From Sphyrna mokarran (taxonomy: Eukaryota): a DNA stretch of 64,000 nucleotides. The DNA lies in the NCBI GenBank assembly GCA_024679065.1, contig JAGIQG010000011.1, forward strand, positions 48,298,001 through 48,362,000. The letters are read 5' to 3'. The notes below the pieces were generated by a model, which saw nothing but the letters and a program-made list of their open reading frames with translations, was not told the origin of the DNA and made no database searches. This document shows, one piece after another, positions 6,319 through 59,170 of this stretch. The position numbers and the translations under genes are program-made. Position 1 is the first letter of the stretch; every line of letters begins with the position of its first letter.

Positions 6319-7437
6319 ATACATGTGCGTGCACATGCACACATGTTGGAGGTGGTAGGCGAGGTGGCGATGGTTCCACTTTTATTGGTATTCCACTAAC
6401 CAATTTCTGGGCCTTCTGCTATATTTGCCTACTGTGCCTGGCATCAAACATGCCATGCCCACAGGAGCTTGGGAGAATTCTGCCCAAGAAATAGAATGTT
6501 CCTTATCATTCACAAGCACTCCACTGTTTCAGCATAGGATGTAGAAGCTGAATTTGCAACAATGCTGTAAATTAAATAATAATAATTTCTTAGATGGCAG
6601 GCTGACAGAAGCACCTGACAAAGCCAAGATTTTGCGCCCATCTTTGCTGCAGGGGCAAACAGCAGTATGGCTGCAAAATCCCATTAGAATCCAAAAGTGA
6701 GATTCCTGCTGGTGAGATCTTGTGGTGTGAACGTCCACATTCCCCACCACTGAGGTGATGAGATTTCCACCCAGGAAGTTTGGGAATCTTATTTAAACAG
6801 ATGTAAATGTAATTAGCAGGCTTACCCACTTATCGTTCTCCAGTTTGGGATTTTCTCCCTCACCATGTGATGTCACGTCAGCAATGTTCACAACAATTTT
6901 TTAAAATGCAAATCAGGAGAAGGGAACCCACGAGAGGGCGCAGGTCAGTACAGTCCTAGAGGGCGGGGCACATGCTGGACAGTACCCTGGCATAATGTTG
7001 AGGTACCAACAGCAGCACTGGGGCAGAGCCAGGATGTATTGCCAAGGAGGTTTCTCTTGGGAGCTCCATAATGGGTTCACTGTTAAGTGGAGGGTTGATA
7101 TCCTTTGGAGGGTGGAGGGGAAGGGGATTGTTCCTGTGTATGTGTTGCAGGGGTTCCTCTTTTTACTGGAGATAGAAGATGCCATTTTTAAAGGCACCCT
7201 GATTTCTGGAAGCCCAACGTTGTTGGTTTTTGAGGCTCTGCCTGCCAACATAATGGTGTGATTCATGTGTCCGACATTTTTTTCTTCCAAGTTCTGGAAA
7301 GTATACTGCGAAAAGTGGTATACAGCTCGCTGGCATAGCTTCTTTTCTCACCTGAACCAACACTTAGAAGATGAAAAAGAAAATTCTGCCCATGTGTTGG
7401 TTCAAATGATACCCATGTTACAAGACATCCCAAATTG

Positions 7438-9133
7438 CGATCTGATCAGGGATACGCAGCATGGCTTCGTCAAGGGGAAGTCTTGTCTTACGAATCTAGT
7501 GGAATTTTTTGAAGAAGTGACAAAAACAGTTGATGAAGGACAGGCTGTTGATGTCGTCTACATGGATTTCAGTAAGGCGTTTGACAAGGTTCCTCATGGT
7601 AGGCTGATAGAGAAGGTGAAGGCGCATGGGATACAGGGTCTGGTATGTAGATGGGTCGAGAACTGGCTCGGGAGGAGGAGACAGAGGGTAGTAGTGGAAG
7701 GCTCTTTTTCCGGCTGGAAGCCTGTCACTAGTGGAGTGCCACAAGGCTCAGTACTAGGTCCTCTTCTATTTGTGGTCTACATAAACGACTTGGAAGTTGG
7801 GGTAGGTGGGGAGATCAGCAAATTTGCTGATGACACCAAGATGCTTGGATTGGCGGGTACAGAAGAGCAGTGTCAGGCAATACAACAGGACATAGACAGG
7901 TTGGTAGACTGGGCAGATAGATGGCAAATGGAATTTAATCCGGATAAATGCGAGGTGATGCATTTTGGCCGAAAAAATGTAGAAGAGAGTTATAGGATAA
8001 AAGGTAAAACTATACGGAGCATAGAGACGCAGAGAGACTTGGGGGTGCAGGTTCACAAGTCTCTGAAGGTGTCCTCACAGGTGGAGAAGGTGATAAAGAA
8101 GGCGTATAGTATGTTAGCTTTCATAGAAAAGGGTATAGAATACAAGAGTAGGAGTTTGATGTTGCAGTTGGATACAACTTTGGTTAGGCCTCACTTGGAA
8201 TACTGCGCCCAGTTCTGGTCTCCGTACTATCGGAAGGATGTGGAGTCCTTGGAGAGAGTGCAGAGGAGGTTTACCAGGATGCTGCCTGGTATGGAAGGAC
8301 TGTCCTATGAGGAACGATTAGATAGACTGGGGTTGTTTTCCCTTGAAAGACGTCGGCTTAGAGGGGATCTCATAGGGGTGTATAAGATTATAAGGGGTAT
8401 AGATAGAGTAAATGGAGGTAAACTTTTTCCACCTTTAGAAATGGATAGGACGAGGGGTCATGGCCATAGGGTTAGGGGGGCTATGTATAGGACGAATATT
8501 AGAGGGCAGTTTTTCACACAAAGGGTAGTGGGGGTGTGGAATGCACTGCCGAGTAAGGTGGTGGGAGCAGGCACGCTGGGGCTGTTTAAGGGTCTCTTGG
8601 ACAGCCACATGAACGGTATGCAGATAGAGGGATATATTAGGACTGTTTAACTACAGCTTTTTTTCCACAGGTAATTCGGTCCATACTTGACCAACATTGA
8701 GCATGCATTCGGCAGGTGGTGCGGGTACAGCTCTTGGATGTTGATTCATGGGTTGCCTGGTACCTCATGTCGTAAATGAGTGCTTTATGTGGACCATCTG
8801 AAGGGCACCATGACAGCTCAAAGACTATCGATGTGGCTGTGCAGACACTTGGAATTGGGCCGGTGTCTGCGGGAGTTTGCGCGTTCTCCCCGTGGTTGCG
8901 TGGGTTTTCTCCGGGCACTCCGGTTTCCTCCCACAACCCAAAAATTCGCTCTTAGGCTGATTGGGAAACAAATTGTCCCTATGGTGAAAATTTTCCATAT
9001 TAGGAATAATATATATATTATTTATAGGAATATTAAAATAGGATAATGTATTTGCTACTATATAGTATGACGGCAGCGCGGGCTCGTTGGGCCGAAGGGC
9101 CTGTTTCCCGTGCTGTGTTGCTTAAAAAAAAAA
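7438..9133 (+). mobile_element. Young 5'-truncated CR1 LINE: uninterrupted RT/C-terminal ORF2 (to 8650) plus long composite 3' UTR
   Basis: QHGF..GKSCLTNL, DFSKAFDKVPH, SGVPQGSVLGP, KFADDTK, LVRPHLEYC; no stops; CR1 tail ggccgaagggcctgtttc..tgctgtg and A-run. Confidence 0.96.
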
Positions 9134-9284
9134 TAGTCAGGCTGCTTATCAGAAGTTGTCAAACTGGTGAATTTTGCTTAGCTCAAATCAAAGAACAGTA
9201 GACATCATTGAGGATTAATTGTCAATAATTATTCAATTCCTTTATTAGGTGCTAGCCAATCTTACCTGCATTACATAATATAAA

Positions 9285-9336
9285 CAACATCGAAGGCCGA
9301 AGGGCCTGTTCTGCGCTGTAATGTTCTATGTTCTAA
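9285..9336 (+). mobile_element. CR1 3'-tail fragment
   Basis: caacatcgaaggccgaagggcctgttctg..tgttctatgttcta, nearly identical to 22654-22704. Confidence 0.85.
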
Positions 9337-17623: not shown

Positions 17624-17990
17624 ATAGAATCATAGAATCCCTGCAGTGCAGAAAACAGCCATTTGAACCATTGAGTCTGCATTAACTCTCAGAAAGAGCA
17701 TCCTTCCCAGGCTCTCCCTCCCTCCCTCCACTCTATTCCCATAACCCTGTACATTTACCATGCTAATCAACCTGACCTACATATCTTTGGACACTTAGGG
17801 GCAATTTAGCTTTGCTAATCCACCTATGCTGCACAACTTTGGACTGTGGGAGGAAACTGGATCACCAGGAGGAGACCATATAAATATAAGGAGAATATGA
17901 AAACTGAACATGTAGTTAACCAAGGCCAGAATTGAACCCAGGTTCCTGGTGTTGTGAGACAGCACTGCTAATCACTGTGCCACCATACCA
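17624..17990 (-). mobile_element. HE1-like V-SINE (tRNA head, V domain, CR1 tail)
   Basis: Reverse strand reads tggcacagtgattagcagtgctgtctcaca..gggttcaattc (A/B boxes), ..tttcctcccacagtccaaag.., tail gggattctatgattcta. Confidence 0.88.
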
Positions 17991-19652: not shown

Positions 19653-20915
19653 GCTTATATAGTGTTTTTATTTAATTAAACATCCCAAGGTGCCCTTTAG
19701 AAGTGTATAAAACAAAGTAAGATACCTGGACACAAAAGGAGAAATCAGGCCAGATGACCAAAAGCATGGTCAAAGAGATACATTTTAAGGAGTGTATCTT
19801 AAGGAAGAGAAGAGGTAGAGAGACGTAGAGCTATCAGAAAAGTATTTTAGAATCTGGATCCTAAGTAACTGAAGGCATGGCCCTCTTTGGTGGAATAATT
19901 AAAATTGGAGATGCAGAAGAAATCAGAATTAGATGAGCATAGATATTTCAAGAGCCTCACTCTGGCATGATTGTCTTTGCCACATTTATTGCAGAGAAAT
20001 ATAGCGGGGTGAGAAGATTCACAATTTGCTGGCCTCTGTTTTTCTGGGCCTTCTTCTCAGTCAGCTGAGCTTTTCATTTCTTCTCCTTCAAATACACTTC
20101 CAGTCAGCCTCCAGAGTTCACAGCTAGCAGCAACAGTCTCCCAGTTGTCTATGTTAGTATCTGCCATTTTCATAGTTTCCTTCTCTTGGAGGTCCTAAGA
20201 GGGACCAGTTGCCAATTTACCCTACAGACGCTGCAGGTGATAATGCTATATTGGCAGAATGTGTCAAGCAAGGGAAACTGGTGCTTATATAGTGTTTTTA
20301 TTTAATTAAACATCCCAAGGTGCCCTTTAGAAGTATATAAAAGAAAGTAAGATATCTAGATGCAAAAGGAGAAATCAGGTCAGATGACCAAAAGCATGGT
20401 CGAAGAGATAGATTTTAAGGAGTGTATCTTAAGGAAGAGAAGAGGCAGAGAGATATAGAGCTATCAGAAAAGTATTTCAGAATTTGGATCCTAAGCAACT
20501 GAAGGCATGGCCACCTTTGGTGGAATAATTAAAATTAGAGATGCAGAAGAGATCAAAATTAGAGGAGCATAAATATTTCAAGAGCCTCACTCTGGCATAA
20601 TTGTCTTTGCCACATTTATTGCAGAGAAATATAGTGGGGTGAGAAGATTCACAATTTGCTGGCCTCTGTTTCCTGGATCTTCTTCTCAGTCAACTAAGCT
20701 TTTCATTTCTTCACCTTCAAATACTCTTCCAGTCAGCCTCCAGAGTTCACAGCCAGCAGCAACTGTCTCCCAGTTGTCTGTGTTAATATCCTCCATTTTC
20801 ATAGTTTCCTTCTCTTGGAGGTCCCGGGAAGGACCAGCTGCCACTTTACCCTGCAGACGCTGCAGATGATAATGCCGTACTAGCAGAATGTGTCAAGCAA
20901 GGGAAACTAGTGCTT
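19653..20915 (+). repeat. Tandem duplication, 630 bp unit x2 (about 90% identical by eye)
   Basis: gcttatatagtgttttta at 19653 and 20283; both units end tgtcaagcaagggaaact.gtgctt. Confidence 0.95.
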
Positions 20916-21560
20916 CTGCAGTATTTACACAAACGCTTCTGCTGGAAAGAGGAAGAAAAGTCCCAGAATATGCATGATGCAAAAATTGAGACCCTACACA
21001 AGAAGAAGGATAGCAATTGCAGCTATTACTGAGGCATCTCACTATTGAGCAACATGGGAAAACTTTTGCCAGTGTTGCCCTTCTTTCACTTCAGAATCAA
21101 GCCAAATGCAAGTATCCCGAATCCCAGTGTGGTTTCAGAACTGGAAGGTCTACAATTGAAATGACCTCAGTCTAGCAGCTGCATGTGAAATGCAATTTTC
21201 TCCTATATATTATCTATACATTACCACTATGCATGCTCTTCATCAATGTTGTTAAGCCTTTCAATCATGTGAGCAGAGCTAATCTATTCAAGCTGCTGGA
21301 AAAAACTGACCGCCTATCAAAGCTGTTTAATATGAGTTTCTCTTTCCATAATAACATAATGGATATAAATCTACAGTGGGGTCAAACCACAGTACCATAA
21401 TCTTTGGGATAGTCTTCTCTTTGTTGCCATCATATGTCTTCCAATAATCTACAGAGTGTGTCCACTTACATACAAAAATTGACAGAAAGCTGTACTACCT
21501 TGCACACTGATGATCCAAGACAAATATATGGCAAGTTCTCATCAGAAAATTGCTCACAAT
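20916..21560 (+). mobile_element. Decayed RTE-like RT fragment
   Basis: Y*GISLLS, YPESQCGFRTGRSTIEM, LCMLFINVVKPFNHVSR resemble RTE RT domains. Confidence 0.65.
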
Positions 21561-21752: not shown

Positions 21753-22704
21753 ACTGTTTGTAATTTTTATAAATGATCTGGATGAGGGTATTGAGGGATG
21801 GATCAGTAAATTTGCAGATGATACTAAAGTTGGTGGTGTGGTAGATAGTGAAGAGGGGTGTTTTAGTTTACAGAGTGACTTGGACAAGTTGCAGAGCTGG
21901 GCCGAGAGGTGGCAAATGGAGTTTAATGTGGAAAAGTGTGAGGTAATGCACTTTGGCAGGAACAATAAATGTGTAGAGTATAGGGCTAATGGTAGGGCTC
22001 TTAATAGTGTTGAGGAACAGAAGGATCTTGGTGTATGTGTCAATAGATCCCTGAAAGTAGGCAGTCAAGTGGATAAAGTTGTTAAGAAGGCATATGGAGT
22101 CTTAGCTTTTATTGGTAGGGGATTGAATTTAGGAGCCGCAGCATCATGTTGCAACTGTACAAAACTCTAGTGCGGCCGCACTTGGAGTATTGTGTGCAGT
22201 TCTGGTCGCCACATTATAAGAAAGATGTGGAGGCATTGGAGAGGGTACAGAGGAGGTTTACTAGGATGTTGCCTGGTATGGAGGGCAGGTCCTATGAAGA
22301 GAGGTTGAAGGATTTGAGGTTGTTTTCGTTAGAAAGGAGGCGGCTAAGAGGGGATCTTATTGAAGCATATAAGATGATTAGAGGTTTAGATAGGGTGGAC
22401 AGTGATAGCCTTTTTCCTAGGATGGAGAAAGCTAGCACGAGGGGACACAGCTTTAAATTAAGGGGTATGAGTTATAGGACGGATATCAGAGGTAGGTTCT
22501 TTACTCAAAGAGTGATTAGGGAGTGGAATGCCCTGCCTGCAGCTGTTGTAGATGCGCCAAGTTTGGTGGCGTTTAAGAGGTTAGTGGATAAGTATATGGA
22601 TGAGAAGGGAATGGTTTAGTTAGGAGGGGCATTGCTTTTTATTTTGGTCGGCACAACATCGAAGGCCGAAGGGCCTGTTCTGTGCTGTATTGTTCTATGT
22701 TCTA
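21753..22704 (+). mobile_element. 5'-truncated CR1 LINE with short 3' UTR, one frameshift near 22120
   Basis: FINDLD..SKFADDTK..LVRPHLEYCVQFWSP; (TGTTCTA)n tail. Confidence 0.95.
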
Positions 22705-23446: not shown

Positions 23447-23557
23447 GACAAGGGAAGAATGTGCAGACTTCACATAGACAGTGATCCAAGCTGGCAATTG
23501 AACCTGGGTCCCTAGTGCTGTGAGGCAGCAATGCTAACCATAGTGCCACCACGCCAT
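23447..23557 (-). mobile_element. HE1-like SINE 5' part
   Basis: tRNA-derived head plus start of V domain on the minus strand. Confidence 0.8.
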
Positions 23558-24501
23558 CCACTATGAAGTCATTAATTAATCCTATCTCATTGCACAATAC
23601 CAGGTCTAATATAGCCAGCTCTCTGGTTGATGTTAGATTGTGCTGTTCTAAAATTATCCTGAAAACATTCCATAGATTCTTTATCTGGGTTCCCTTTTCC
23701 CATCCAATTTTTCCACTCTATGTTGATTCAAATCCCTCGTGATTATCATTGTACCTTTCTGACAAGCTCCCATTATTTCTTCCTTTATAGCCTGTGTGGT
23801 TACTGTTAAGAGGCCTAAACATCAGTCCATCAAGTGACTTCTTGCCTTTATCATTTATCTTCTCTACACAAACTGCTTCTAGATATTGATTTCCAGAGAT
23901 TATTACTTTTGAAATTCTACTTTATAATTTGATGCCCCTTATACTCTCTATGCAGACTTTCTTTCCTAGCCTTACCTGTTGTTATCATTACTTGAACAAT
24001 AACCACTGGATTCTCCCTTTCCAAATACATGTTCCTCTGCGACCCGTAGCAAATATTCTGAACTCTGATATTGGGAGCACGGAAAATACAAGAAATTTTC
24101 CTCCCTTTTTTCCTCCTTCTGATTGAGGAATTGGCCCTGTTTCTTTGTAATTGTGCTCTTAACTTGCTATTTCAATGTATAAATACATATTTTAAAAAAT
24201 ATTTCCATCCTGAGCTTGTTGAGGCCAGGTCAAGGATATTCAGGTGTTATCTCACATGATTTGTGTCAATTAAAAGCTAAAGTTGGACTTCAAAATTATC
24301 TCTGGCAAAATGTTAATGACATATTTTGAACATGAAGTTTGGGATAAGATTTATTTTACAGTGTAATATTTCCATCAGAGGCAACTGTGCCTGTAAGTAC
24401 AGCACTGATCTTACAGTTTGTAAGATCTTACTTTAATTGTTTGACATATTTTATTCATATGGCTAATTTTTAATTCAACATTTCCCATAGGAGTGGCAAG
24501 G

Positions 24502-25046: not shown

Positions 25047-26930
25047 GTTAGCTATTCTCCAGTCCTCTGAGACCTCACCTGTGTCCAAAGAAGAGACAAA
25101 GATTTGCGTCAGAGGCCCAGCAATTTCACCTCGCGTCTCCCTAAGCAGTCTGGGATAAATGCCATCAGGCCCAGGAGATTTATCAGTTTTAATGCTAACT
25201 AGAAGCTCTAACACTTCCTCCCTCAGTACGGATATTTCCCTCAACTGGCCTACAGCTCCCTCAGAGACAGGACCAGTCAACAAGCCCCTCTCCTTCATGA
25301 ATGCCGACGCAAAGTATTCATTCAGGACCTCCCCCATTCCCTTGGGCTGTAAGCACAGTTCCTCTCCTCTGTCCCTAAGACGTCCAATTTTTCCTCTAAC
25401 CATCCTTTTATTCCTAACATAGGAGTAAAAAGCCTTTAGATTTTCCTTAATCCTATCCGCCAAAACCATTTCATACCCCCTTTTTGCCCTTCTAACTCCC
25501 CATGTGAGCTCCCTCCTACTCTCTCTATATTCCTCCAACGCTCTCTCCATTCCCAGCTGCTTTGACCTAACATACGAGTCTCTTTTCTTCCTAACCAAGT
25601 CCTCAATATCCCTAGTAATCCATGGCTCTCTAATCCTACCTTTCCTATCTTTCCTCTTAGCCGGCACATGTCTATCTTGTAACATTTTCAGTATTCCCTT
25701 GAAAGAATCCCACGTGCCTACTGTGGACATACCCTCGAACAACCGTTCCCAATCAGTTTCCATAAGTTCCTGCCTAATCCGACTGTAGTTAGCCTTCCCC
25801 CAATTCAGCACCCTCCCCGTAGGGCAACAAGCATCCTTTTCCATCTGTATCCTAAAATAGACAGAATTGTGGTGACTGTTAGCCACATGTTCCCCTACTA
25901 CAACATCAACCACCTGCCCTGGCTCATTACTCAGAACTAAATCCAATATAGCCCCCTCTCTAGTCGGAGTAGCCACATACTGCTCCAACGATCCTTCCAG
26001 TACACATTTTACAAATTCCTCCCCGTCCGAGCTCCCAGCTCTAGGTACCTTCCAATCCACCCCAGGAAGATTAAAATCTTTCTGCACCTATCCAAAATGT
26101 CTTTACGTATGCCTTCTTCAACTACCTGCGGGCTGTTGGGTGGCCTATAATACACCCCTAGCATAGTAATTGCCCCCTTCCTATTCCTCGACTCCACTCC
26201 TAACTCCTCTGTATTGTCCTCCCTCTGCACTGCTGTGATGCTCTCCCTAACTAACAACGCCACTCCCCCACCTCTTCTGGACCCACCTCTGTCATGCCTG
26301 AAACACTTTTACCCAGGAATATTCAGCTACCACTGCTCCCCTTCCTTTAACTATGTCTCCGTCACTGCAACCACATCCAAGTCCCTTGCAAACATTAAGG
26401 TCCTAAGTTCATCCGTTTTTCTTGTTATGATCCTCTCATTGAAACAGACACACCCCAGACCTCCAAGATCACTTGGAACCTCCTTCTCCCTGGTGTATTT
26501 CCTCTCATTCAAGCTTACTCTATCTTCCATCTCACTCCCTACCCAGCTATCGGTCTCATCCCTTCCTCCCCTCCATATTAGTTTAAACCCTGCCGAAACA
26601 CTCCAGCTAACCTCCCAGCTAAGATATTCACGCCTTTTCCATTTAAGTGTTCCCCGTCCCTTCTATACAGGTGCCCTTCTTTCACAAATACTTTCCAGTT
26701 ATTCACAAATACTTTCCAGTTATCCACAAATATAACACCCTCTGCCCTACACCAATCCTTCAGCCACGCATTCAGCTGTAGGATCTCATTTCTCCTGGCC
26801 CTGCTGTTACCCGGCCCAGGTAGCAGCCCTGAGATCGCCACCCTGGAGGCCCTACTCTTCAGTCTACCCCCCAACTCCCTGAACTGCCTTCATATATCCT
26901 CCCTGCTCTTCCTTCCTACATCCTTCTCTC
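25047..26930 (-). mobile_element. Internal CR1 fragment: ORF1 SGNH-esterase end, APE endonuclease and linker; frameshifted
   Basis: LNAWLKDWC..LYRRDG.HLN (ORF1); GVYYRPPN, DFNLP, PTREGAILDLVL, KSPGPDGIYPRLL, DWRIAN. Confidence 0.92.
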
Positions 26931-28735
26931 TTATGTGAATAATCACATCCGCCTGGGTCCCCTCACCCTTCAAAATGCCCAATCTGATGTCAACCCTCTC
27001 CACCATATCTACCAGACAATTACTTCACAATGTCATCTTTATGTCCCTATAGGCGAAGATCACCCATTGCAAGAGAGAGTGGCAGAAAACAAGCGGGGTG
27101 GGGGGGTACCCAAGATTAGAATGCTTACCCACTTTAACAAGAGGACAGTGCACTTCATGAGGGAATCCCATAACTAAGCCTTGGCAGACAGTGAGATTGG
27201 CATGCGCCAAAGAAGTGAAAGTCCACTGCTCCTTTAATGTTAGATATTTTAGTAGTTGCATGATTATGTTAAGAGGTCACATGTCTTGATCATGAGATTA
27301 TTAGGTATTGTTATTTTGAATTTACATGTGCAAACCATATATTTTCTTTTTATTTAAAATCAACAACCACTAACAAAATTAGGATATTACAAAAACAAAA
27401 TTGGCAATGAGTCTGGATTTTGTTTGATGAACACATGGATTAAAAATCCTAAGCAGAAAAAAAAATTATGGCCCTTGAACTTCGAATACTACAAGGCTAG
27501 GGAAAATCAACAACAGAATTAAAGATTGAAGGGCCAGTGAAGACTCAAGTGAAGAAAGAAAAGGCGGAAAATATTTGCATTTATTACTGGGGAAAAAATA
27601 TAGGGCAGACTTGTCTCAGCTGCACATTGCAATACATAGCTGCAGGGTGAGAGACTCACAGTGCACTTGAATAAAGGTGGATGCTCTCTGTGTAGTTTTA
27701 AAAGAGAGAATTTTTCTGGTCAGAGAAAGATGAGATTCCAGGCAATATCTGGCATATTTAAAAAGAAGTGATGCTTTGCTGTACAGCTGGATCACTTGGA
27801 AAAAAAGTCAAGTCAATGATCTTCAGAGTAACAAGGGAGTACTGGCAAGACGCTAAAAACATATATACTGAGCAGTTCAAGCCATTAGTGCCTGCAGAAG
27901 AAATGGTGGATCAATTAGGATCAGTGGGCCTTTCCAATTAAGAAAATGAATCATGGAGTTCCTATATGGAGCAGTTTCAATACTTTGTACTTGCAAATAA
28001 ATTTGAAAACAAGTTGCTTTTACCAACTTTTCTCAGTACAATTGGAAGTAAAATCTTCAATTTGCTCAGCAGCTTGGTTCACCCAACAAAGCCAAGGACC
28101 AAAACTTAACAAAGATCTTTGCAAAGCCACTGATCACTGTCGAACTGTTCAAGTTTCACTGAAGGAATAAAGTAGAAGGTGAAGGCATTGCCCACTTGGT
28201 GGCACCTTTAAAAAGACTAGCACAACATGATGAGTTAATGATTCATTAGAAAATACTCCTTGAGATTGTCTGTGCTTTTCGAAATAAAGCTATCCAAAGA
28301 AGATTCCTTCCTGAAAATGCTTTGATTTTAAAAATAGCAATCACAATATCAATGCAATTGGCTATGAATGAGGTTTCATAATTTGATGCAGCAGTGAAAA
28401 TCCACAAGCTGGGAACTGCCAGTAAGAAGTCAAAACAGCACCAAGCATATCACAGATATGTGAAAATGGGCCATTCAGTGAATGAATGTCAGGGTAAGGA
28501 TAGTCAATGCAAGAATTGTGGCAAAATGAGTCACATTACAAAAGAATGTTGGGCTAGACCAACTTTTCCTGAGAACAATATTCAGAAGAAGTATCTCTGT
28601 AACTTAAAAAACAAGTTGAATTCTACAAAAATAACTTGCAATATGGTTGAAAAGAATTACCAACAGTGAACAATAGGATATGCAGAAATATGATGAAGAG
28701 CTCCAATTGAACATCATATCTGTACACAGTGAATC

Positions 28736-32589: not shown

Positions 32590-35520
32590 CAAATGCTGAC
32601 ACCCCCCCCTCCATGTCCTTTGTCTTTCAGGATCTCTAACTCATCTGGGGTCACTATCCCTCCCACAAACCCCTTAGAGGACTCCACAGCACAACTCTGA
32701 GGAGGACACCGAGCTCTCACCACTGCTTTCACCAACACCATCAAACTGCACAGAGACACTTACCTCAGTGGGACGTGTTAGTGAACAGGCTTCTGGGTCA
32801 TTTTCTGGAGTGCACCACATGGCTGCTGAAGCACATCAAGTGGAGGCAAAAACATTCAAAGAAGTGGGCAGTCGGAGGACCCAGGATCCCAGCAAACAGC
32901 TGTTTCAAAGCCAGATATCGGACCTATGGAAAAGGTCTTCCTATCACTGATAGAGATGCAAATATGGAGCAAATCTTTGGAGGGGGTATCAGCGACTTTC
33001 CAGCAAATGCAACACCAATTGAAGTAATCTGGAAGCCTGCTTTTGCAGAAGATGGCAAAACACGGCAAGGGTGGCATCCGCAGTGGAAAGCCTCAGACAA
33101 GATGTCTGAGCCATGTCTAATGATGTCCAAAGCTTGGCTCATTTTATGATATCCATGGCTGAGGCGCAAGACTGCAGGGCCCAGTCACATCATGACTTCA
33201 GTACTGGTCAACATTGCTGAGGCACTCCACAGTTTGACTCACTCACACAGGATTATGGCTGAGAGCAATGAGTGCATTTCCCAGTGGCAGAGGGCCATGC
33301 TAAGGGTTCTGCCACTATGGTTAAGGCATTGGTGGGTCTCCAGGGCTGGCAGTATTAGGTAACTCAGAGCCTTCTGGAGCTCACTCCAGCTGCGCCTTCA
33401 TCCCATGGAATAGTGGGAAGAGCGAATCCCGGGGCCTTGCACCAAGGCACTCTCCAGACCTTCTGTGTTCCCCTTTCCTGACACTCTCTCATGTCCTGGG
33501 CAACAGGCAGACCACGGTGACTTGTGACCTGTGATACCTGAAAGGTCACTAATGCCCTTCAGGTCTAGGCACTCCAGATGATGCCAGCCAAGGGCAGCAC
33601 AGGCCAGAAGATGCGGAATGCAGGAGGCTACCTCTACCTCTGATGTGCTTTCTGGGAACACACCTAAAAGAAGTGAGAAGTCAGGAAAGTTAAGAAGGTA
33701 GAGGACCACTGAGTTGGCACAGGTGAAGACACAGAAATATAGTTAAGGAAAAAAGGTACTGATTGTAAAAAACAACAATTAACATGTTTGCATTTTGAAA
33801 CTAACATCCCTGTCACTGTTAATGTTTCCCTTGAGGGTAGGAAAGGGCTGATCTCCTCCTCTAACCTTTGAAATTCCCACATGCCTCCAGCTTCACCAAC
33901 TTGACAGCCCATGAGACCAATCCCAGTCATCCTCGTATGGCAACCTTACCAGTTCATTAGCCCAGACTTAGTGGCATTTCTCCTTCCCCTTTCCTCACCA
34001 TGGCCCAGAAGAAAATGCTTCCATCTCACACAGGCATGAGGTGGGAGGTGGGAGGTCAGTTGAGCTAACATGGGAGGTCATAAGATTCTGGGGAGCACTA
34101 CAGTTTCCCTCACAGTGAGTCATCATTACCCTCTTTTTGACACTATTATCTTAGAACCATCACCCTAGTGTTATGTCAAATACACACTTGGAGGTGGAGA
34201 GGGGGAGTACTGCTAATGGGAAGGAGGAAGTGAAGCTGTAGCAATGTTCAGAGGTTGGGTTTATAATAGGTCTCTGACAAGTGCAAAAGGGGTTGGGGAG
34301 GAGGGTTCTGCAATGGTGGAGGGGGAAGAAGGGATTGGGCAAGGCAGGATTTAAGGATTACAGGGATGGGGTAGTTTAAGCTGCCTGACAAAGAGCCTCC
34401 TAGGTGAGTAATCTGGAGGCTTTGAGGGCCTGCCTGCTTCTATCCTCCATCTTCTGGAATGTTATTAGGTTGTCCTCAATCCCATCCTGGTCCTCCTTCT
34501 CCCCCGACAAATTCATATGTTCCTTAGCCTCCTCCTCCATCATGTCATTCTGCTGCTGTGTCAGGTTGTGCAGGACACAGCATGCGACCACTATTCGCAA
34601 CTCCCTCTGGGGGCTGTATTGGAATGCCCAACAGAGTATAGACTGTAGGCCCGTACACTGCTCAGTGACATACCTGGTAGCAGAAACAGTCAGCCTACCG
34701 TCTTTGGACCCTCAAGTCTATCTAACTCCCATCATCATCTTGCATCTGAAAATTGACCATTCCTGCTTCCCAGCACAGCTTTGAAGAGCTGCTGCCCAAA
34801 ACAGGTAGCTTACACAGTCATGGTCTCTGCTCCTTGGTACCTCAGTGTCACTTATGGTTTCATCATCTGGGGGTGATTCCTATCATTAGTGCTATTGCAA
34901 ATTATTTTCCACTGAAAGTGGAAGGCCCTGTTTGCCCCCAAACCTCTTCGATCCATCAGTGCATTCATGTGAGCAATGATGCAAGAGCATCAGGTGAGCC
35001 CTCATAATGCCTGAACTGCGAGCCTCCAGCCTTGCCTATGACTGTCTCTTCTCCTAAGCCTTCCTTGCAATATTGAGGATGAATTATCAATGATGACAGA
35101 CAGGTGATAAGAGGTTTAAGGCTAGCAGGAATATAAGAGGATGGAAAACTGGTGCATGATCTGAATTGAATATCATGAACATCATGCCACCTTATTCCTG
35201 GCATTTTGCCACTCTCACAGGACAGCCACTGTGAGACTTCTCACTTCAATGATGAACCACTGTGTTCCCTCTCCACAACCACAACCACTCTCGCCCAGCC
35301 CCCTACCTGGACTACCGATACTGACTCATTTACAGGGCCCTTGCTGGAAAAGGTTTCAATCCTCACAATCCTTTCTGCCAAAATCAGGAGCATTATCCCA
35401 CAGAGAGGGCTCTGTGGTCCTCATGCTGCGTTTCCTAGGGAGTCAAAAGCGGGTGGGGTGGGGGAGCTGATAGAAAGACCAGTGTGCCTTTTTGTGTGAG
35501 CTATGGTCGATGCTTGTGTA
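32590..35520. mobile_element. Decayed PIF/Harbinger element (transposase on - strand, probable accessory gene on + strand)
   Basis: 34400-34620 minus reads RIVVACCVLHNL plus an acidic stretch, typical of the Harbinger transposase C-terminus. Confidence 0.65.
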
Positions 35521-36020
35521 GTGGAGATGCTAATATTGTGCTCTGCTGCCAGATGCTAAAGTTAAACCACAGCCTAAAGATGAATTAAAGATGTGAGAAG
35601 AGTTGTCACTGGTTTAAAGACAAGTAGGATTACAAAGTTGTGATGCTTTCTAGAAAGGATCATTAATATTGTGCCCAAACAATGAGGCGGGACTGACCAG
35701 CTGCATTGGTGAGAGACAGAGCATCTCAAGCTTGATGGAACATGAACTGAGTGTTTCAGTAGGAGATGTTTATTCTGACCTGCCTATGACTATTATGACA
35801 GTCATAGGCAAGGCTGGAGGCTCGCAGTTCAGGCATTGTGAGGGCTCACCTGATGCTCTTGTATCATTGCTCACATGAATGCACTGATGGACCGAAGAGG
35901 TTTGGGGGCAAACAGGGCCTTCCACTTTCAGTGGAAAATAATTTGCAATAGCACTAATGATAGGAATCACCCCCAGATGATGAAACCATAAGTGACACTG
36001 AGGTACCAAGGAGCAGAGAC
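34823..36020. repeat. Inverted repeat, 224 bp arms (34823-35046 / 35797-36020)
   Basis: Arms are reverse complements with about 3 mismatches. Confidence 0.95.
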
Positions 36021-42837: not shown

Positions 42838-43878
42838 ATGAAAACACAACATGGTGGCAGCAGTGAGATCAATTGATAGGTTTGCATTCTCCTGCTAGTG
42901 TAATGTTGCAGTGCCTTGAAACTATTAATTTTGTCGAAATATTCTGAATGTTTCAATATTAGTTTATGAACTGAGGTGATTGGATTAGTTTCTAAGCTTG
43001 ATCTACCATACAGTTTCTAAGTAATCTCATGAATTATGACTAGTGCATGCTGGTATAACAACCATTATTAAACCTTTAGTCTCCACAATATAGAACATCT
43101 CTGACATTTGGGAGGATTGATTGTACTTGTGCTCCAGAACTATGAAACCAGTACATGGAATGAATGGACCATCATATAATGAAATTTTCACAGTAATAGG
43201 TTTTGTCATGGCCTTTGTATCTATGGACACATGTCTTTCAGAATCCTCATGATATGTTTTGCACTTGGTCGTATCAAACTTCGCTTTTTAATGCTACATG
43301 TTTTGGGCTTGTCTAGCAGATTCTTCTATAATGCTTCCATGGGAATGGATATAATCACCAACTCAAAAATTCTGTTTCTAGTGCAATTTGTTCTTTTTTG
43401 AGTAAGGAGGCTAAAATTGTACACAAAACTCCAGATGTTTGATACGACCAAGTGCAAAACATATCATGAGGATTCTGAAAAACATGTGTCCATAGATACA
43501 AAGGCCATGACAAAACCTATTACTGTGAAAATTTCATTATATGATGGTCCATTCATTCCATGTACTGGTTTCATAGTTCTGGAGCACAAGTATAATCAAT
43601 CCTCCCAAATGTCAGAGATGTTCTATATTGTGGAGACTAAAGGATTAATAATGGTTGTTATACCAGCATGCACTAGTCATAATTCATGAGATTACTTAGA
43701 AACTGTATGGTAGATCAAGCTTAGAAACTAATCCAATCACCTCAGTTCATAAACTAATATTGAAACATTCAGAATATTTCGACAAAATTAATAGTTTCAA
43801 GGCACTGCAACATTACACTAGCAGGAGAATGCAAACCTATCAATTGATCTCACTGCTGCCACCATGTTGTGTTTTCAT
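42838..43878. repeat. Near-perfect inverted repeat, 442 bp arms (42838-43279 / 43437-43878), 157 bp spacer; arms are decayed Gypsy protease-RT linker
   Basis: About 3 mismatches; identical ORFs on both strands; SLYDG.FIPCTG..FYIVETKG..PAC and KHSEYFDKINSFKG resemble Gypsy pol. Confidence 0.96.
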
Positions 43879-46533: not shown

Positions 46534-49500
46534 TGTTTATTCTGGGATTAGTTTTATGGTCCTATATTGTTAGGAGAGAATGTGTTTTTGGACATTTTGT
46601 TTTCAAAAAGCTTTAATGTTTTAGTTTTGAGGTTGCAGTTTAGTTTTAGCAGGAGCATCAAGCAAGAAAGAAGCTAAAGTCACTCTCTCTCTCTGTCTCC
46701 CTGTTCTATTTTGAAATTTTGCTGGTTATCGCAGGCAATGTTTGCCTTCTGGAAAGAAAGTGCAAGTTTTAAAAAGACTCAATTTCAGTCAAGTGAGATT
46801 TTAGTCAATGCTGTGTTAAGCCTGTGAAAATGGTTTTGTTTATGAAAGATTTTGGTTTTTTGGAACAGCTTTAATATTCAATTAAAGGTTAATAAATTAT
46901 AGAGGTTGTTTTCTTTTTTTGTAATTGATATAAGGTATTGCTATTTTTCTTTCTGTACATGTTAACTATATTCTCAAATAAACTTTGTTTGATAAAAGCT
47001 CTGTAAAGGGTTGTTGAATCATACTTGAAGTGAAACATATTATGCTTATCCTAGCCAAATTCAAGATGCAAAACCTATGGTTTGGATGGTTTCCATAAAG
47101 AACTTTGAAATTTCTAGCCTGAGCCATAACAGTTAGGGGCTTTAGCAAGATTAAAATCTATATTTCTTGCTTGATTTGGGTTATTGAACTCAAAGAGTGT
47201 GTGGTGAGCATATTGGTGTTTTCTTTTCAGGTATTTGTATTCAAGTTTAAATAGGCATTCCCTATTGTGCCTAGTGTAATAATAATTGCTCTTTTAGGAA
47301 TGAAGAAGTTCTTCAGGTAAGGGAAGGCATGCAAGAAACCTTACAAAAGATGACTAAAACAAAGCTTTTGGAATTGACAAAAACATTGCAATTGACATTG
47401 CCTGACAGGGTAAGAAAAAGTGAAATAATTGTGCCAATAGCACAGCATTAGAAATTGCCAGAAGCATAATCAGAATCCTTGGAAATGGCTAGAAGTAAAT
47501 TACGAAAGAAACAGCTTGAACATGAAAAAGAATTAAAGAAGCTTAATTTGAAATGAAGGAAAGAGAGAGGGGGTAGCAAAAGACGATAGCCCTATCAGAA
47601 CAAAGGGTCAAAGAAAGGAATGCAATTGTAGCAGAAAAAGTAAAGGAGGGGAAGACCAATATAGCAAGAAAACCAAAGAAAGGGAGGAACAAAAAAAAGA
47701 CAGCCTGAATTGCAAGCAAGGGAAAGAGAGAGAGAGGGAATTAGAATTTCAGACATGGAAAAGAAAAACTGAACTTGAAATGCTCGAAATGCAAATACAT
47801 AAAATGCAAGGTCAGCAGCAGACATGTTAGGTGATTATGAATTAGTTCCTAAAACAAAGTTTGGTTTCTGACATCAGTTTTAGCCTTTGAAGGATAGAAA
47901 CTGGGGAACAGAAATACTCAGGTGGTGAAAGTAACGGAGATCTTGTAGGAGATAATAAAGATAATGTACCTCAGTTTGAAAAGGAAATACAGGAAAGTGG
48001 AAGAGAAATGAAAAACCTCAGAACTTTTCATTGTAATAAATTAGGCCATGTAAAGTCACAGTGTTCTTGATTTAAGAAAAGGACTGGAATGACTGAAGTG
48101 GTAAAACAGGATAAGCCAGTGGGGACTGTTAAAGTGGTAAAGGAAAGCCCAGCTTGGCCAGGAGTTGATTGACAAAAAAGTGTCAGCTCTCTGGCACTTG
48201 TGTGGATAAAATTTACTCATGAAGTTAAAATTTTAAGAGATAGAGGAGCAAGTCAATCTTTGATGGTAAGCGGTGAGGAATTATGTAGATTGGGAGGAGT
48301 ATTATCAAAAAAGGTGATAATGTGTGGAATTCAGGGAAAGAAGAGTAGTATTCCATTGAGTCCACTGAAGAATGGTGAAGTGGTAGTAGGAGTAACAGAG
48401 AAATTATCATGTGCAAAAATACAGTTTATCTTAGGTAATGATATAGCTGGATCATGTTGAAGGACACATATCCTGGGATTTTTCCTGATTGTGTAGTAAC
48501 AACATCGCAACATCATAGGTTAAAACAAGAGTGAAAATGAGAAAGTTGAAGTTCAATTATCAGAAATGATTTTTGATCAGATGGTTGGGAAAGAACAAGA
48601 ACAGGTGGAGAATGAGGTAATTACTTTAGTTCAGAAAGTTGACAGGGTTATAACAGAAAGATATGGAAATAAAACAGTTGTATCAGGAAGCATACATGGA
48701 AGAAGAACCTGAATGTATACCAGAATGTTATTATCTTAAAAGTGAGTCTTAGTGAGGAAATGGAGACCTTTACTTATTCAGGTGGATGAAAAGTGGGCAG
48801 AAGATCATCAAGTGATATTGCCAATAGGATATAGAAAGGAGATGTTGTGAGCAGCATGAGGTGTACCAATAGGTGGTCATTTGGGAGTAAGGAAAACTCA
48901 AGCTAAAATACAAAAACATTTTTATTGGTCTGGACTGCATAAAAATGTAGTTAAATTTTAGTTAAATTCCCTGTATGTATGTAGGGAAACATACATGTTT
49001 CCCTATGACTTGACATGTGTGAGACTTGACTCTCACACATGTCAAGTCATAGGGAAACGTCAAATAGTGATAGAAACAATAACCTTAATACCCATTCCAG
49101 CATTTGAGAAACATTTTACAAGGGTCTTAATTGATTGCGTAGGACTTCTCCCTGAGACAAAAAGGGGGCATCAATATCTTTTGACTATAATGAATGTGCC
49201 TTATTATGTTTCGAGAGGTCGTTCCATTATTAATATTACAGCTAAAGGAATTGTAGAAGAGTTACTTCAATTTTTTTACTAGATATGGATTATCCACAGA
49301 AATACAATCAGATCAAGAGTCAAATTTTATCTTAAAGTTGTTTACAGAGGTTAAGGATACTTCTAGGAATAAAACAAAGTAAATCAACTGCATACCATCC
49401 AGAATCACAGAAAGCGTTAGAACGGTGGCATCAAACCTTACAAACAATGTTGAGGGCTTATTGTTAAGATTATCCAGAGGATTGGTATAAGGGAATTCCA

Positions 49501-51871
49501 CGTGTACTGTTTGCCATTAGGGATGCACTTAATAGTAAACTAAATTCAGTCCATCTGAATTGATTTTTGATCATGAGATAAGAGGACCACTGAAATTGAT
49601 TAAGGACTTCGGCCCACCTTGTTATCCAACAAGGGGCATACAAGCAATGGGTCGTGAGAAGGTTGCTCTTAGATTTTTTGAGAGTAGCCTATTGCTTCAC
49701 GTCGTCAGTGTACGCTTGAACTAGACCAGTTGATGGGCAACACGACAGCTCAGTGACTGTTGCTGTGCAGATACATGAATTTGGGCCGATATCTGTGGGA
49801 GTTTGCGCATTCTCCCCATGCTTGCTGGGTTTTCTCCAGGTGCTCCGGTTTCCTCCCACACCCCAAAAATTTGCTCTTAGGCTGATTAGCAAAACAAATT
49901 CTCCCTAAATTGTCTCGTTAATTTTGTTCCAATGCAGGTTTCTATAATAGACAGGGGTCATGGGTGGAAGTGGGAATGTTGAGGTGGCGGCGTGGGCTCA
50001 TTGGACTGAAGAGCCTGTTTCCTGTGCTGTGTTGTTCTTTGAGAAATTGGTGAGTGAGTGTTCTGAAACAACATTATTAGATTACATGTCAAATTTTAGG
50101 GAAAAATTAAATAGAGCAGGTAAATTGGCTAGACAACATTTAAAAGTAGCACAGCCAGTGATGGAACAGCAAGCAAACAAGGAATCAAAAATTCATAGTT
50201 TTGCTAGTGGGGACAAAGTCTTAGTACTGTCGCCAGTGGTAAGTTAACCTTTGAAAGCAAATTTTAGTGGGCCTTATCAAATCAAAAGGAAATTAAGTGA
50301 GGTAAATTATTTGGTAAGAATGCCAGATATAAGGAAAACTTAGTGTGCCATGTGAATATGCTTAAAAGGTATTTTGACAGGGAAGTAGAACAAAAAAATG
50401 ATGTGTTAATAGTTATAACTCAGAATGAAGAACTGAATCCAGATGACTCTGAATTTGACATTTCTCAAGTTAAATTAGATAATAAATACATTATTAAAAA
50501 TTGGGAAATATTACTGAGTTAACTTCCAGATGAAAAACAAATTCACCTAAGAGTTATTAAAATCACATGAATAAGTATATGGAAGTAAACTGGGATGTAC
50601 TAGAATGGTTATTCATGATGTAGATGTGGGAAATGCTGTTCCAATTAAATAACATCCTTATAGACTTAACTTTGTAAAATTGGCACAAATTCAAAAGGAA
50701 ATTGGAAGTATCCTTAATAACATAATTTAAGTGAGTTGCAGTGAGTGGTGCTCATTCATAATAATAGTACCAAAATCAGATGGTACCTAACGATTGTGTG
50801 TGGACTATAGGAAAGTTAATGCAGTTACAAAATCAGACTCTTATCCTATTCTATGGCTGGAGACTTGCATTGAGACGGTGGGTCAATCAACTTTTATTTC
50901 CAAACTGGATTTACTCAAAGGTTACTGGCAAGTATCTTTATCTGAAAGGGTGTAGGAGACTTTTAACTTCCATGGCACCAAATGGTTTATACCAATTCAA
51001 AGTTATGCCATTTGGCATGCCAAACACCTCAGCCACATTTCAACGGTTAACTAAGAAAGTCATTTCAGGACTACCTAATTATGGTGTACATAGACGATCT
51101 GGTGATTTTTAATCAGACATGGAAAGAACAATTGAAGCATTTGGCAGAATAATTCAATCAACTTCAGGAGGCAGGCTTGATGGTAAACCTAGCTATGAGT
51201 GAGTTTGGGAAAGTTGAAGTTACATTCCTTGGCCATACAATTGGACATGGACAGGTGGCCCTGTGGGATGTGAAAACAAAAGTTATTGGGAGGTTCCCAA
51301 TACTACTGACAAGGGAAATAATGAGATTTCTGGGCCTGAGTGGTTTTCACAGTAAATTTGTACAGTTTAGTTTTCAGTTTTTGCAGGCACCTCAAGCAAG
51401 AAAGGAGCTGCAGTAGACTCTCTCTCTCTGTCTCCCTGTTCTATTTGGAGATTCTGCTGGTTATCTCAAGGCAATATTTTGCCTTCTGGAAGGAAAGTGC
51501 TGGCTTTGAAAAGACTCAATAGCAGTCAACTGAGATTTTAATCTATGCTGTGTTAAGCCTGTGAAAAGGGTTTTGTTTGAGAGGTTTTGGTTTATTGGAA
51601 CAGCTTTAATATTCAATTAAAGGTTAATACATTATTGAGGTTGTTTCCATTCTTTTTTGCTTATAATTGGTACAAGGTATTGTTAATTTTCTTTCTATAT
51701 GTGTTAACTATATCCTTAAATAAAATTTTTTTGATAAAAACTCTCTAGAGAGTTGTTGAATTATACCTGAAATAAAACACATCATGTTCATCCTGGCCAA
51801 ATTCAAGATGCAAAACTTATGGTTTGGGCGGTCTCCATTAAGTACATTGGAGTTTTAACTGAACCATAATA
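46534..51871 (+). mobile_element. Decayed Gmr1-like Gypsy LTR element (PR-IN-RT order), internally deleted at the 3' end
   Basis: LTR copies ~46630-47130 and ~51361-51871; ILRDRGASQSL (PR); GGHLGVRKT..HFYW..CQV, IDCVG, TAYHPES (IN, 48850-49600); YRKVNAVT, KLDLLKGYWQV, FKVMPFGM, YIDDL (RT, 50780-51350). Confidence 0.9.
49607..50040 (+). mobile_element. Stand-alone copy of the long CR1 3' UTR module (V-domain plus CR1 tail) inserted in Gmr1 pol
   Basis: Colinear with 54228-54673; removing it restores ttaagga|gaaattgg (LIKEKL). Confidence 0.9.
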
Positions 51872-52338
51872 CTCAGGACATCCCAAAGCACTTTATATCT
51901 AATTAAGTACTTTAAGTGTAGCCGCTGTTGTAATGTAGGGAGTGCAATTTGGACACAATAAGGTACTACAAAAACAGCATTGTGATAATCTATTTCATTA
52001 ATATTAATTAGCCTCTCACATCTGCTTTCAGGAAAGATCCCACAATTCAATTACCTTTCAAGGCAAGTGTAATACTATCCTTTAAATAAGGATATCATGG
52101 GTAATTTTATGAGTTGACATTATTGATGCAGAACTTCTTATGCCAGAAGAATATATTGGGCAGGCAAACCTTCACTCTAATTTTCTGTCTGTTCAAATAA
52201 TTCATAGTTATTCCTTAGCTTATTCCTAAAACAGGAAGACCTAAAGGAAGAATTTTAAAGTTACAACATTAGAATAGATTTATATTAGAATGCAAACTAC
52301 TTGCAAGTGAAAAACAAGACTTTGTTTTTTATTCACAG

Positions 52339-53154: not shown

Positions 53155-54673
53155 CAGGTAAATAACTGGCTTGGTAATAGGAGACAGTGAGTAATAGTGG
53201 AAGGGTGTTTCTCTAGCTGGAGGTCGGTCACTAGTGGTGTGCCGCAGGGCTCGGTACTGGGACCTCTTCTATTCGTAATATATATAAATGATTTGGAAGA
53301 GGGAGTAAGTGGAGTGATCAGCAAGTTTGCAGACGATACAAAGATGGCTGGACTTGCGGATAGTGAGGAGCATTGTCAGGCGATGCAGCAGGACATAGAT
53401 AGGATGGTAGCTTGGGCAGACAGATGGCAGATGGAATTCAATCCTGATAAATGTGAGGTGATGCATTTCGGGAGAAAGATGTAGGGGGGGGAGGTATATG
53501 ATAAAGGGTAGACCTATTAAAAGTATAGAAACGCAGAGGGACCTAGGGGTGCAGGTGAACAAGTCTCTGAAGGTGGCAGAGCAAGTGGAGAAGGTTGTGA
53601 AGAAAGCATATAGTATGCTAGCCTTTATAGGAAGGGGTATAGAGTACAAGAGCTGGCCTTTAATTTTGCAGTTGTATAAAACACTGGTTAGACCTCATTT
53701 GGAATACTGCGTCCAGTTCTGGTCGCCTTACTACCGGAAAGACGTGGAGACTCTGGAGAGAGTGCAGAGGAGGTTTACCAGGATGCTGCCTGGTATGGAA
53801 GGTCGGAGTTACGAGGAGAGATTAGGCAAATTGGGACTGTTTTCCTTAGAAAGACGTAGACTTAGAGGAGATCTGATAGAGGTGTACAAGATTTTGAAGG
53901 GATAGATAGAGTAAACAGGGTTAAGCTTTTTCCTAGGATGGACTCTAATAGCACGAGGGGTCACGGGCTTAGGGTGAGGAGGGTAAGGTATAATTTGGAT
54001 GCTAGAGGGAGTTTTTTCTCACAGAGGGTGGTGGGGGTATGGAATGCGCTGCCAAGTAAAGTGGTGGAGGCAGGTACTCTGGAGTTATTTAAGAAATACT
54101 TAGATGGGCACATGAACAGAATGGGAATGGAGAGGTATAGAAAACTGATTTAAAATAGGGATCACAAGCCTTGGGAAGTGTGTAAATAGATGATGATATT
54201 GATGTACTCGTTTTTATCCTACAGGTGCTTTGGTCCACCTTGTTGTCTAACGAGGGGCATACATGCAATGGGTTGTGAGAGGGCTGCTCTTGGATCTTTT
54301 TTGAGAGTATCCTAGTGCTTCACGTCGTTAGTGTACGCTTGACCTGGACCATTTGATGGGTAACACGACAGCTCAGTGACTATAGCTGTGCTGTGCAGAT
54401 ACATGGATTTGGGCCTGTGTCTGTGGGAGTTTGCGCATTCTCCCCGTGCTTGCGTGGGTTTTCTCCGGGTGCTCCGGTTTCCTCCCACATCCCCAAGATG
54501 TGCTCTTAGGCTAATTGGCAAAACAAATTCTCCCTAAATTGTCTCAAATTTGGTTTTTAATCCATAGATCTATAAACATGGACAGGGATCGTGGGTAGAG
54601 GTGGGAACATCGGGGTGACGGCACGAGCTCGTTGGGCCGAAGGGCATGTTTCCCATGCTGTTTTGTTCTTTGT
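53155..54673 (+). mobile_element. 5'-truncated CR1 LINE with long composite 3' UTR, in ROPN1 intron 4
   Basis: RT motifs as in the 7438 copy, frameshifts near 53480 and 53900, (TGTTCTT) tail. Confidence 0.95.
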
Positions 54674-56935: not shown

Positions 56936-57249
56936 CATAGAATAGAATCCTACTGAGCAGAAGGAGGCATTTGACCCAATAAATCTAGACTCTCAGACCT
57001 AGCATTCTAGCCAGGCCATATTTCCATAATCCTGCACATTTATCCCACCAATGCCCCTAAAAGACAATGTAGCGTAGCCAATCAACCTAACCTGCACCTC
57101 TTTGCAGTATGGGAGGGAACTGAAGCACTGAGGAAACCTACCCAGACACAGAGAACGTGCAAACTCCATACAGACAATCACCCAAGGCTGGAATCAAACC
57201 CAGGCCCTGAGGCTGTGAGGCAGCAGTGCCAACCACTGTGCCACTATGC
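56936..57249 (-). mobile_element. HE1-like V-SINE
   Basis: tRNA head, V domain and CR1-derived tail on the minus strand. Confidence 0.85.
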
Positions 57250-59170
57250 AATGCATGAAGTGCCCATATTTTACTAAGGCATGATAACTTAACAGTGTTA
57301 TCTATTGCAGCTGGACCTAAAACTGTACAGCAGGATTAGGAGGCATGCTAGTTTCTATGAAGACAACCATGTCTTCAACTTTTATATGTCAGAATCTTTC
57401 AAAGTGGGAGCAGTCAAATTTCCACGATTTCACAGTTCTCTATGCTGCACTGTATTAGGGAAGTGGTAGAGCCAACTTAAATGTCTTAATTTGTTATTAC
57501 CAGAGGACAAGATCAAACATAACAATGTAGAGCAGTAGAGAACTGGTTGTGCCAGGCATGTATGCAATGCCTGAGCCCTTGAAGGCAGTGCTTCACATCA
57601 TGGGGCTGACTATAACTGAGGCCTTTGTATGAGTCACTGAGAAGGTTCAGAATGATGCTATATCCTTGCCATATACACTTTCTGAAATCCTACTTCATCC
57701 TTTTCCCATTCTATGGCATGAAATACAAACTCTTGGTGCTGTGAGTATGTATCTCTTGCTTTCCACTTCAACCCTTCCCTCCTTTCCTCATCTTTGCACG
57801 AAACTTTGCTTAGCTAGTGGAATCCCCAATGATGCATAGTGCCATTGACTGCTGACACATGGTTCTGTGGATGGGATGAGCAAGGCTCACAGAAGGAATT
57901 CTCTGTTGGCCTCGAGTGGGATTTTACAAGCCTCGCCCAAATGAGGTCATAAAATTTTGGCCCACATTTCAATTGGTGGTGGGGTGAGGGTGGGTGGCGT
58001 GTACAATGGCGAGTAGTAGCAGTTAATGAAATGTAAATATATTAAAATATATCTAAATCAAGGTCATGCATTGATTATATCACTGAGTGCTGGCAGAAAT
58101 TGGAAGTTATGATCTTGCTGGTGAGATTTGAGACTTCTGGAGTTTCACTGGATCTTGTAGCCCTGCCATCATTCCCACGGATAGAGATTGCAGGCTGAAG
58201 ATCACTCCAAATGTTTGTGTCAAAAGTCTGATGTTGCTTTCACTGTTGATAGTGAGGCTGCATTGGCTAGCTAGGTAGCAAATCTGTGATATCTGAAAAC
58301 AAGCATACAAAAGGTGAGAAAAGGAGGGAAAGGATTGGAATGGAAAGCAAGAGGACATAGTCACACCACCAAGAGTTTGTATTTCATGCCATAGATTGGG
58401 AAAAGGATGAAGTGGGATTTCAGAAAGTGTATATGGCAGGGATATAGCATCATTCTGAACCTTCTCAATGACTCAGATACAAAGGCCTTAGTTATAGTCA
58501 GCCCCATGATGTGAAGCACTGCCTTGAAGGGCTCAGGCAATGCATACATGCCTAGCACAACCAGTTCTCTACTGCTCTACATTGTTATGTTTGATCTTGT
58601 CCTGGAAGAGAGACAAAAGAATGTCAGTGAGAATGTTTCATTTTGTTTGGGCAATATGCCAGTTTTAGCTGAATAGCTAATAGCTATGGATATTTGGAAA
58701 CTGCAAAAGATGGGTTACAGGCTGGCAATATTGGCAAGTGTGTGAAGATAGAATGGAACATTGGAATGTTAGACATGAATCTTGATAGCTGATGGATAAG
58801 TGATTGGATTTTGGTGCACGAAGCAACATGAAAGATGTGTTGTTGTGGTGGGTAGAAGATATTATTTGAAGATATATTCACTGATCTTGATCAACCCTGA
58901 GAAGTAATTGAAGTTTTCCTACAACTGGGCCAGATCCTTAAGCCAGACTCCAGTTTGGTCATCTACTCTATTCCCTTTGTAGTGTGTGCCTTCAAAGTCT
59001 CTTGGCACCCAATACAAACAAGGCCTCTCTTGTCCTTTACAGGTCCATTACTAAAGATTTCAGCATGCATCTGAAACCTGGGAAACTTCCCTTGGTTCCC
59101 TAACCAGTCTTCCAAGTTTGTTTCAGTACCTGCTATAGCCAGAGTGCATCTCCCCTTTAAGAGTAACTGA
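57250..59170. mobile_element. Decayed Harbinger relic (transposase piece +, Myb-like gene -)
   Basis: ~57378 NFYMSESFKV resembles LNFYASGSFQ; minus-strand cttccag|GACAAGATCAAACATAAC exon is homologous to the ~5134 exon. Confidence 0.55.
57504..58603. repeat. Inverted repeat, ~295 bp arms (57504-57796 / 58308-58603)
   Basis: Reverse-complement arms, roughly 90-95% identical by eye, more diverged at the inner ends. Confidence 0.93.

Follow-up and report, generated by a model that had tools for sequence, protein, structure and literature searches.

A V-SINE remnant with an upstream, putatively folded segment and an acceptor-like motif in the 3' UTR of a CR1 retrotransposon

The V-SINE HE1 and its partner LINE HER1 have been described in sharks and rays (PMC3747384), and CR1-group elements are reported to make up 22-34% of the genomes of sharks and rays (PMC13343379). 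In stringent LINEs the ORF2 protein binds a stem-loop of the 3' tail, as described for zebrafish L2 elements (PMC4176376). The persistence of conserved SINE domains such as V is referred to in PMC5804259 as a "major enigma" for which no explanation has been demonstrated. Tail sharing between LINEs and SINEs, V domains residing on other elements, exon capture by SVA and spliced copies of L1 are all already known. The locus presented here lies in a window of 64,000 nucleotides (the whole stretch of DNA that was analysed, positions being counted from its first letter) and concerns a CR1 element whose 3' UTR contains a V domain.

The open reading frame at 7262-8650 of the plus strand codes for a reverse transcriptase (Pfam RVT_1, E 2.5e-26). 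Because homology begins near 7441, inside this frame, copy 1 is a 5'-truncated CR1 ORF2 (7441-8650, plus strand, the 5' end being approximate), comprising the reverse transcriptase and the C-terminal part and open up to the stop. In the protein search with ORF2, 6846 of 8000 scored candidates reached E <=1e-50; among the best 120 listed, the named eukaryotic matches come from reptiles, birds, sharks and rays, the latter two groups supplying those closest by identity among the matches listed (56-64%). From these reverse transcriptase matches the element is read as a CR1 of a chondrichthyan-type lineage. Two proteins labelled bacterial (P0005 and P0019, 66-68% identity, on contigs shorter than 1.7 kb) are also among the closest matches listed, and they are probably fish DNA contaminating those assemblies.

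Comparison of the window with itself gives two further copies: copy 2 (53164-54672, plus strand), which consists of an ORF2 fragment, a spacer, a pyrimidine tract with CAG|GT and the same module as copy 1, and copy 3 (49607-50041, plus strand), which is the module alone with no ORF2. All three are 5'-truncated and all lie on the plus strand, and the window contains no full-length element with a 5' UTR; the 3' tail is conserved, closes with a short repeat and is shared with module-free CR1 copies. Elsewhere in the window a 5' part of a CR1 occurs on the minus strand at 25050-27030, with an esterase-type ORF1 fragment (Pfam Lipase_GDSL_2) and the endonuclease region; it ends before the reverse transcriptase core and does not overlap copy 1. 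An isolated CR1 tail fragment is located 160 bases past copy 1 (9284-9335, plus strand) and shares 96% identity with the tail at 22653-22704.

The ORF2 stop codon of copy 1 (TAA, 8648-8650, plus strand) is overlapped by the branch-point-like word TTTAAC (8646-8651) with its A at -21, followed by a pyrimidine tract with CAG at 8657-8670 (10 of 11 pyrimidines in 8657-8667, CAG at 8668-8670), and then by the donor-like GTAATT at 8671-8676 (donor match 8/9 when the CAG before it is included). An extra CAG is situated closer to the stop (8654-8656). The preliminary description had reported this motif with its CAG|GTAATT junction at 8670/1, and it is indeed there, only its start having been placed one base too early. 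Likewise, the second copy that it named exists as described: CAG|GTGCTT stands at 54224/5, behind a tract with 9 of 11 pyrimidines and a spacer of other length (71 nt from the stop ending at 54153, compared with 20 nt in copy 1). The order and spacing of a U2-type 3' splice site (branch point, pyrimidine tract, YAG) were recognised in a rule-based scan that covered 128 kb on both strands and sought YAG, at least 9 of 11 pyrimidines and a branch-like word at -18 to -40. There are 201 YAG sites with such a tract, 22 of them with G at +1 and a branch-like word, and six sites have GT at +1/+2; only two of the six full acceptor|GT matches are on the plus strand, and these are copy 1 and copy 2. The tract-AG is uncommon in the window, and the two matches are a single homologous site and do not count as two events. 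The branch-point word taken alone is weak evidence, since a word of this kind occurs between -18 and -40 at 38% of sampled positions.

The AG forms the front of a module of about 450 nt in the CR1 3' UTR, for which self-comparison of the window gives three occurrences; the preliminary description mentions neither this larger module nor the module-only copy 3. The same composite is seen in all three module copies and is missing from the window's two remaining CR1 3' ends that have ORF2. In copy 1 the AG is followed on the plus strand by a segment of about 130 nt (8671-8802), a degenerate tRNA-derived SINE head (8803-8865), the V-SINE conserved central domain (8866-8959), a diverged linker (8960-9067) and a CR1-type 3' tail (9068-9123). 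Alignment with three free SINEs located in the window shows that the head lacks 18 nt in each of the three module copies, a deletion that covers the B-box region. Because the head is degenerate and this region is deleted, the SINE of the module is termed a V-SINE remnant and not a V-SINE. The free V-SINE copies with a B-box region, used as references for the module head, all lie on the minus strand (17625-17990, 57050-57258 and 23450-23560). The V domain of copy 2 matches the V consensus in the supplement of PMC6887750 at 57 of 64 positions, as counted by eye. The module tail is closer to the tails of both CR1 3' ends that have no module than to the free SINE tail, and a run of ten A (9124-9133) comes right after it in copy 1, which alone ends so. 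Copy 1 has an AT-rich linker; in copies 2 and 3 the 3' half of the linker is G-rich.

Two candidate origins were tried and rejected, namely the segment of about 130 nt as a former coding sequence (no frame is open across all three copies) and the tract as a decayed original CR1 tail (P <0.05 in just one of 12 shuffle tests). The module pattern has no match in the viral, genome and metagenome contig collections. Searches based on ORF2 found nothing in genome or viral contigs; the metagenomes gave 17 distant loci (34-52% identity), none of which matches the pre-V part of the module. Of the sequencing runs listed, 19 of 22 contain part of 7300-9300, with one that may be an RNA run (share 0.43), and no conclusion is based on them.

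Copies 1 and 2 are identical at 85, 87 and 62.5% of ORF2 codon positions 1, 2 and 3, and a near-neutral baseline of 58-62% is obtained from four-fold sites (52/89) and third positions (205/328); by this pattern, the two copies diverged as active lineages. Against this baseline the V core is identical at 83/94 positions (88%, P 2e-8) and the head remnant at 51/62 (82%, P 6e-4), with tail identity at 46/50 (92%), and these three parts are clearly under constraint. The segment of about 130 nt (85/129, 66%) and the linker (59/90 aligned positions, 66%) are near neutral by sequence. Since identity drops to 66% again in the linker, which separates core from tail, the conservation of the V core does not reflect a recently shared 3' block.

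The preliminary description considered the acceptor to be retained and proposed a comparison of the tract and AG with the adjacent UTR. The acceptor is present in both lineages, and under simulated neutral change a passing acceptor survives in 4-17% of trials (2-11% with the GT); the identity of the tract through GT is 13/17 (76%), which is not significantly above the baseline (P 0.06-0.26 depending on the baseline chosen). This identity exceeds the 66% of the next segment, though not significantly (binomial P 0.18-0.26). Retention of the acceptor across about 40% near-neutral divergence is suggestive, a hint that does not reach significance. Homology between copies 1 and 2 picks up again at the tract (8658/54211), and therefore the difference between their spacers, which amounts to 51 nt, spared the tract.

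The segment of about 130 nt gives, for single copies on the plus strand, fold z values of -2.06, -1.45 and -2.71; on the minus strand z is near 0, and among 19 control segments from ORF2 six reach -1.45 and two reach -2. The consensus fold of the three copies has -35.5 kcal/mol, compared with -20.0 +/- 3.4 in column shuffles, none of 200 being as low, and it lies below all eight ORF2 control windows (the best control at -32.2). Two-sided changes in this computed consensus fold are not above the shuffles (103/200 as high). In the fold model the closing helix pairs 8678-8683 with 8790-8795 (plus strand), so that the fold begins at +8. Within it, three-copy comparison gives a hairpin at 8760-8783 (plus strand) with three two-sided changes among its eight pairs, a count equalled by 2/300 column shuffles and by 0/14 ORF2 windows. 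The loop of this hairpin (8769-8773) may pair with 8810-8814 of the head remnant as a pseudoknot in all three copies, a possibility proposed post hoc. A five-helix model has six two-sided changes among 40 pairs, with 0/500 shuffles as high; the model was built from the same three sequences, and its score is weighted below the hairpin shuffles and the consensus-fold test. On evidence of moderate strength from three copies, the fold of the segment is probably conserved. Neither a relevant Rfam family (E up to 10, any of the three copies) nor the core words of hammerhead and twister ribozymes in the module were found.

Copy 3, which has a 2-nt duplication at its flanks, starts at +4 after the AG (+3 counting microhomology). 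A simple truncation model puts the chance of a start within 4 nt of the junction at about 1-2%, and the module boundary may therefore matter. The suggestion that splicing out of the ORFs yields a short mobilisable RNA agrees with this start, and it is at odds with the missing upstream exon, which would be expected from splicing. The insertion site is the integrase region of an old LTR retrotransposon (46639-51877, plus strand, LTRs 84% identical), the order of which seems from ORF fragments to be gag, protease, integrase and then reverse transcriptase (RVT_1 at 50768-51109). This order is unusual for a Gypsy-type element and resembles that of Gmr1 elements.

A search of the window for host exons identified none; 44 long ORF stretches gave transposon domains only, and there are two strict exon candidates. 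The window also holds three long inverted repeat pairs (34823-36020, 224 bp, 99%; 42838-43878, 445 bp, 99%; 57504-58603, 295 bp, 93%), possibly non-autonomous DNA transposons, and a stretch of about 645 bp that is duplicated in tandem (19653-20926, 91% identity).

The explanation preferred here, to which a probability of roughly 45% is given, is that the module is a captured RNA-level unit and that the tract-AG is a passenger or a cryptic acceptor. An ancestral CR1 would have acquired a foreign stretch in its 3' UTR, behind the ORF2 stop and ahead of its own tail, probably in a single event of read-through or template switch; as the architecture of the copies suggests, this stretch would have comprised the spacer, the tract-AG, the segment of about 130 nt and the V-SINE body. 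The SINE has no Pol III B box and so would ride in the Pol II RNA of the LINE. In this CR1, as is established for stringent LINEs, the ORF2 protein would bind the tail and start reverse transcription from it, leaving 5'-truncated copies, and selection would act on the downstream RNA, that is on the fold, the head remnant, the V core and the tail, the module putatively serving to stabilise or export the RNA or to assemble the RNP. The tract-AG would be carried along at the module front, not needed by the LINE and not a ratchet point, and would be good enough for cryptic acceptor use where a copy lies in an intron in sense orientation; copy 3 would be a truncation at the module edge. Three mild coincidences speak against a passenger, namely the retention of the acceptor (0.04-0.17), the sparing of the tract and the start of copy 3 (1-2%). 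They mildly favour an AG that matters. A plain terminal-exon acceptor that is itself selected is regarded as possible and yet somewhat unlikely: a donor in the 5' UTR of the element or in a host exon would be joined to it, giving an ORF-less, tail-bearing RNA copied in trans, or, in a variant, the site would recruit 3' splice-site factors for 3'-end definition with no splicing at all. That copies 1 and 2 supply the only full acceptor|GT matches of the plus strand, that the site survived about 40% neutral divergence (P 0.04-0.17) with the tract left intact by the spacer change, and that a module-only copy 3 exists all argue for selection on the acceptor, for which there are precedents in SVA subfamilies derived from host-exon splicing (PMC6139936) and in spliced L1 retrocopies (PMC5860796). 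On the other hand, a spliced 5' exon is found in 0/3 module copies, both copies that reach past the AG are unspliced (2/2), and the identity of the tract is not significantly over the baseline. A search of longer proteins for an exonised peptide, a weak test with one frame (the longest after the AG, copies 2 and 3), returned seven candidates, none at E <=10, and L1 splicing is called an evolutionary dead end in PMC5860796.

The start of copy 3 at +3/+4 with its 2-nt target duplication, together with a fold beginning at +8, would also agree with a module that is, or once was, a short element with a 5' end of its own at about +1 to +4, produced by transcription start or by RNA self-processing, and later captured by CR1 so that the tract-AG marks the old junction. 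This origin is considered distinctly unlikely: it rests on one copy, the B box is missing, no relevant Rfam family is matched by the three copies at E up to 10, and the acceptor-like look of the junction is left unexplained. As to self-processing, an HDV-like ribozyme was tried with a loose descriptor and rejected, the one imperfect fit being at +1 of copy 2, with none in copy 3 and 4/60 random windows matching; a nested double pseudoknot with P1 starting from the cleavage site and kept in all copies, as in HDV-like ribozymes, was not found. Least probable by far is the proposal of the preliminary description that AG|GT acts as a recursive (ratchet) splice site making intronic insertions tolerable, which does not hold across the copies. 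The junction donor of copy 1 does reach 8/9, a level shared by just 20 sites in 128 kb; that of copy 2 is only 6/9, as at 465 sites, and the sole downstream donor of at least 6/9 within about 225 nt is at 8760 in copy 1, with none in copies 2 and 3 and hence none common to the copies. G at +1 belongs to the ordinary acceptor consensus, and no host gene was identified in the window. Ratchet points are described as depending on a cryptic exon that has a donor at its downstream end, and as having ultraconserved acceptor-donor motifs (PMC8605326), neither of which is seen across the copies.

It might further be imagined that such a CR1 lineage is a built-in source of short parasites, in which the acceptor, or processing by the folded RNA right behind it, supplies an ORF-less, tail-bearing RNA copied in trans (copy 3), and the V domain and the new fold act at the RNA level within a transcript made by Pol II. 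We hold this to be rather unlikely; if true, conservation of the V domain would be independent of SINE transcription. A LINE lineage that keeps its V core at 88% over a baseline of 58-62% after loss of the B box offers a direct test of V persistence. If the acceptor is used, an abundant class of repeats would gain a route for trapping and mobilising host exons; if it is unused, what has been found is the module, with the motif as its passenger. In the literature covered, which included few subscription papers, no CR1 with an internal B-box-less V-SINE, a folded segment and an acceptor after ORF2 was found, and a consensus of the composite may already be in Repbase or Dfam.

The known systems each share some of these features. 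L1 SpIREs (PMC5860796) likewise involve splice sites internal to a LINE and potentially retrotransposed spliced RNAs, but their acceptors lie in the 5' UTR or ORF1 rather than behind ORF2, and the SpIREs are said to be dead ends. SVA_F1 and the STK40-SVA subfamily (PMC6139936) are composite non-LTR elements with a SINE-derived part and with host exons spliced nearby; spliced exons are visible in SVA copies, whereas the module copies show none. Bipartite non-autonomous LINEs (PMC5786205) and CR1-derived SIDEs (PMC6740152) are short and ORF-less and keep the LINE tail, and copy 3 may be similar, although they retain a 5' part of the LINE and are reported to be internal deletions, while copy 3 has no 5' part. 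In the MER6 DNA transposon with a headless V-SINE (PMC6887750), the V domain is also passive cargo that has lost Pol III competence; the carrier there is a DNA transposon, whereas here it is a LINE with an RNA intermediate and the V core remains constrained between lineages. HE1 and HER1 (PMC3747384) resemble the locus in the tRNA-derived head, the V domain, the LINE-type tail and the elasmobranch-type genome, and free SINEs of this kind are present in the window; in contrast to HE1, the SINE body of the module resides within the 3' UTR of the LINE itself, devoid of a B box and placed behind a putatively folded segment and a tract-AG.
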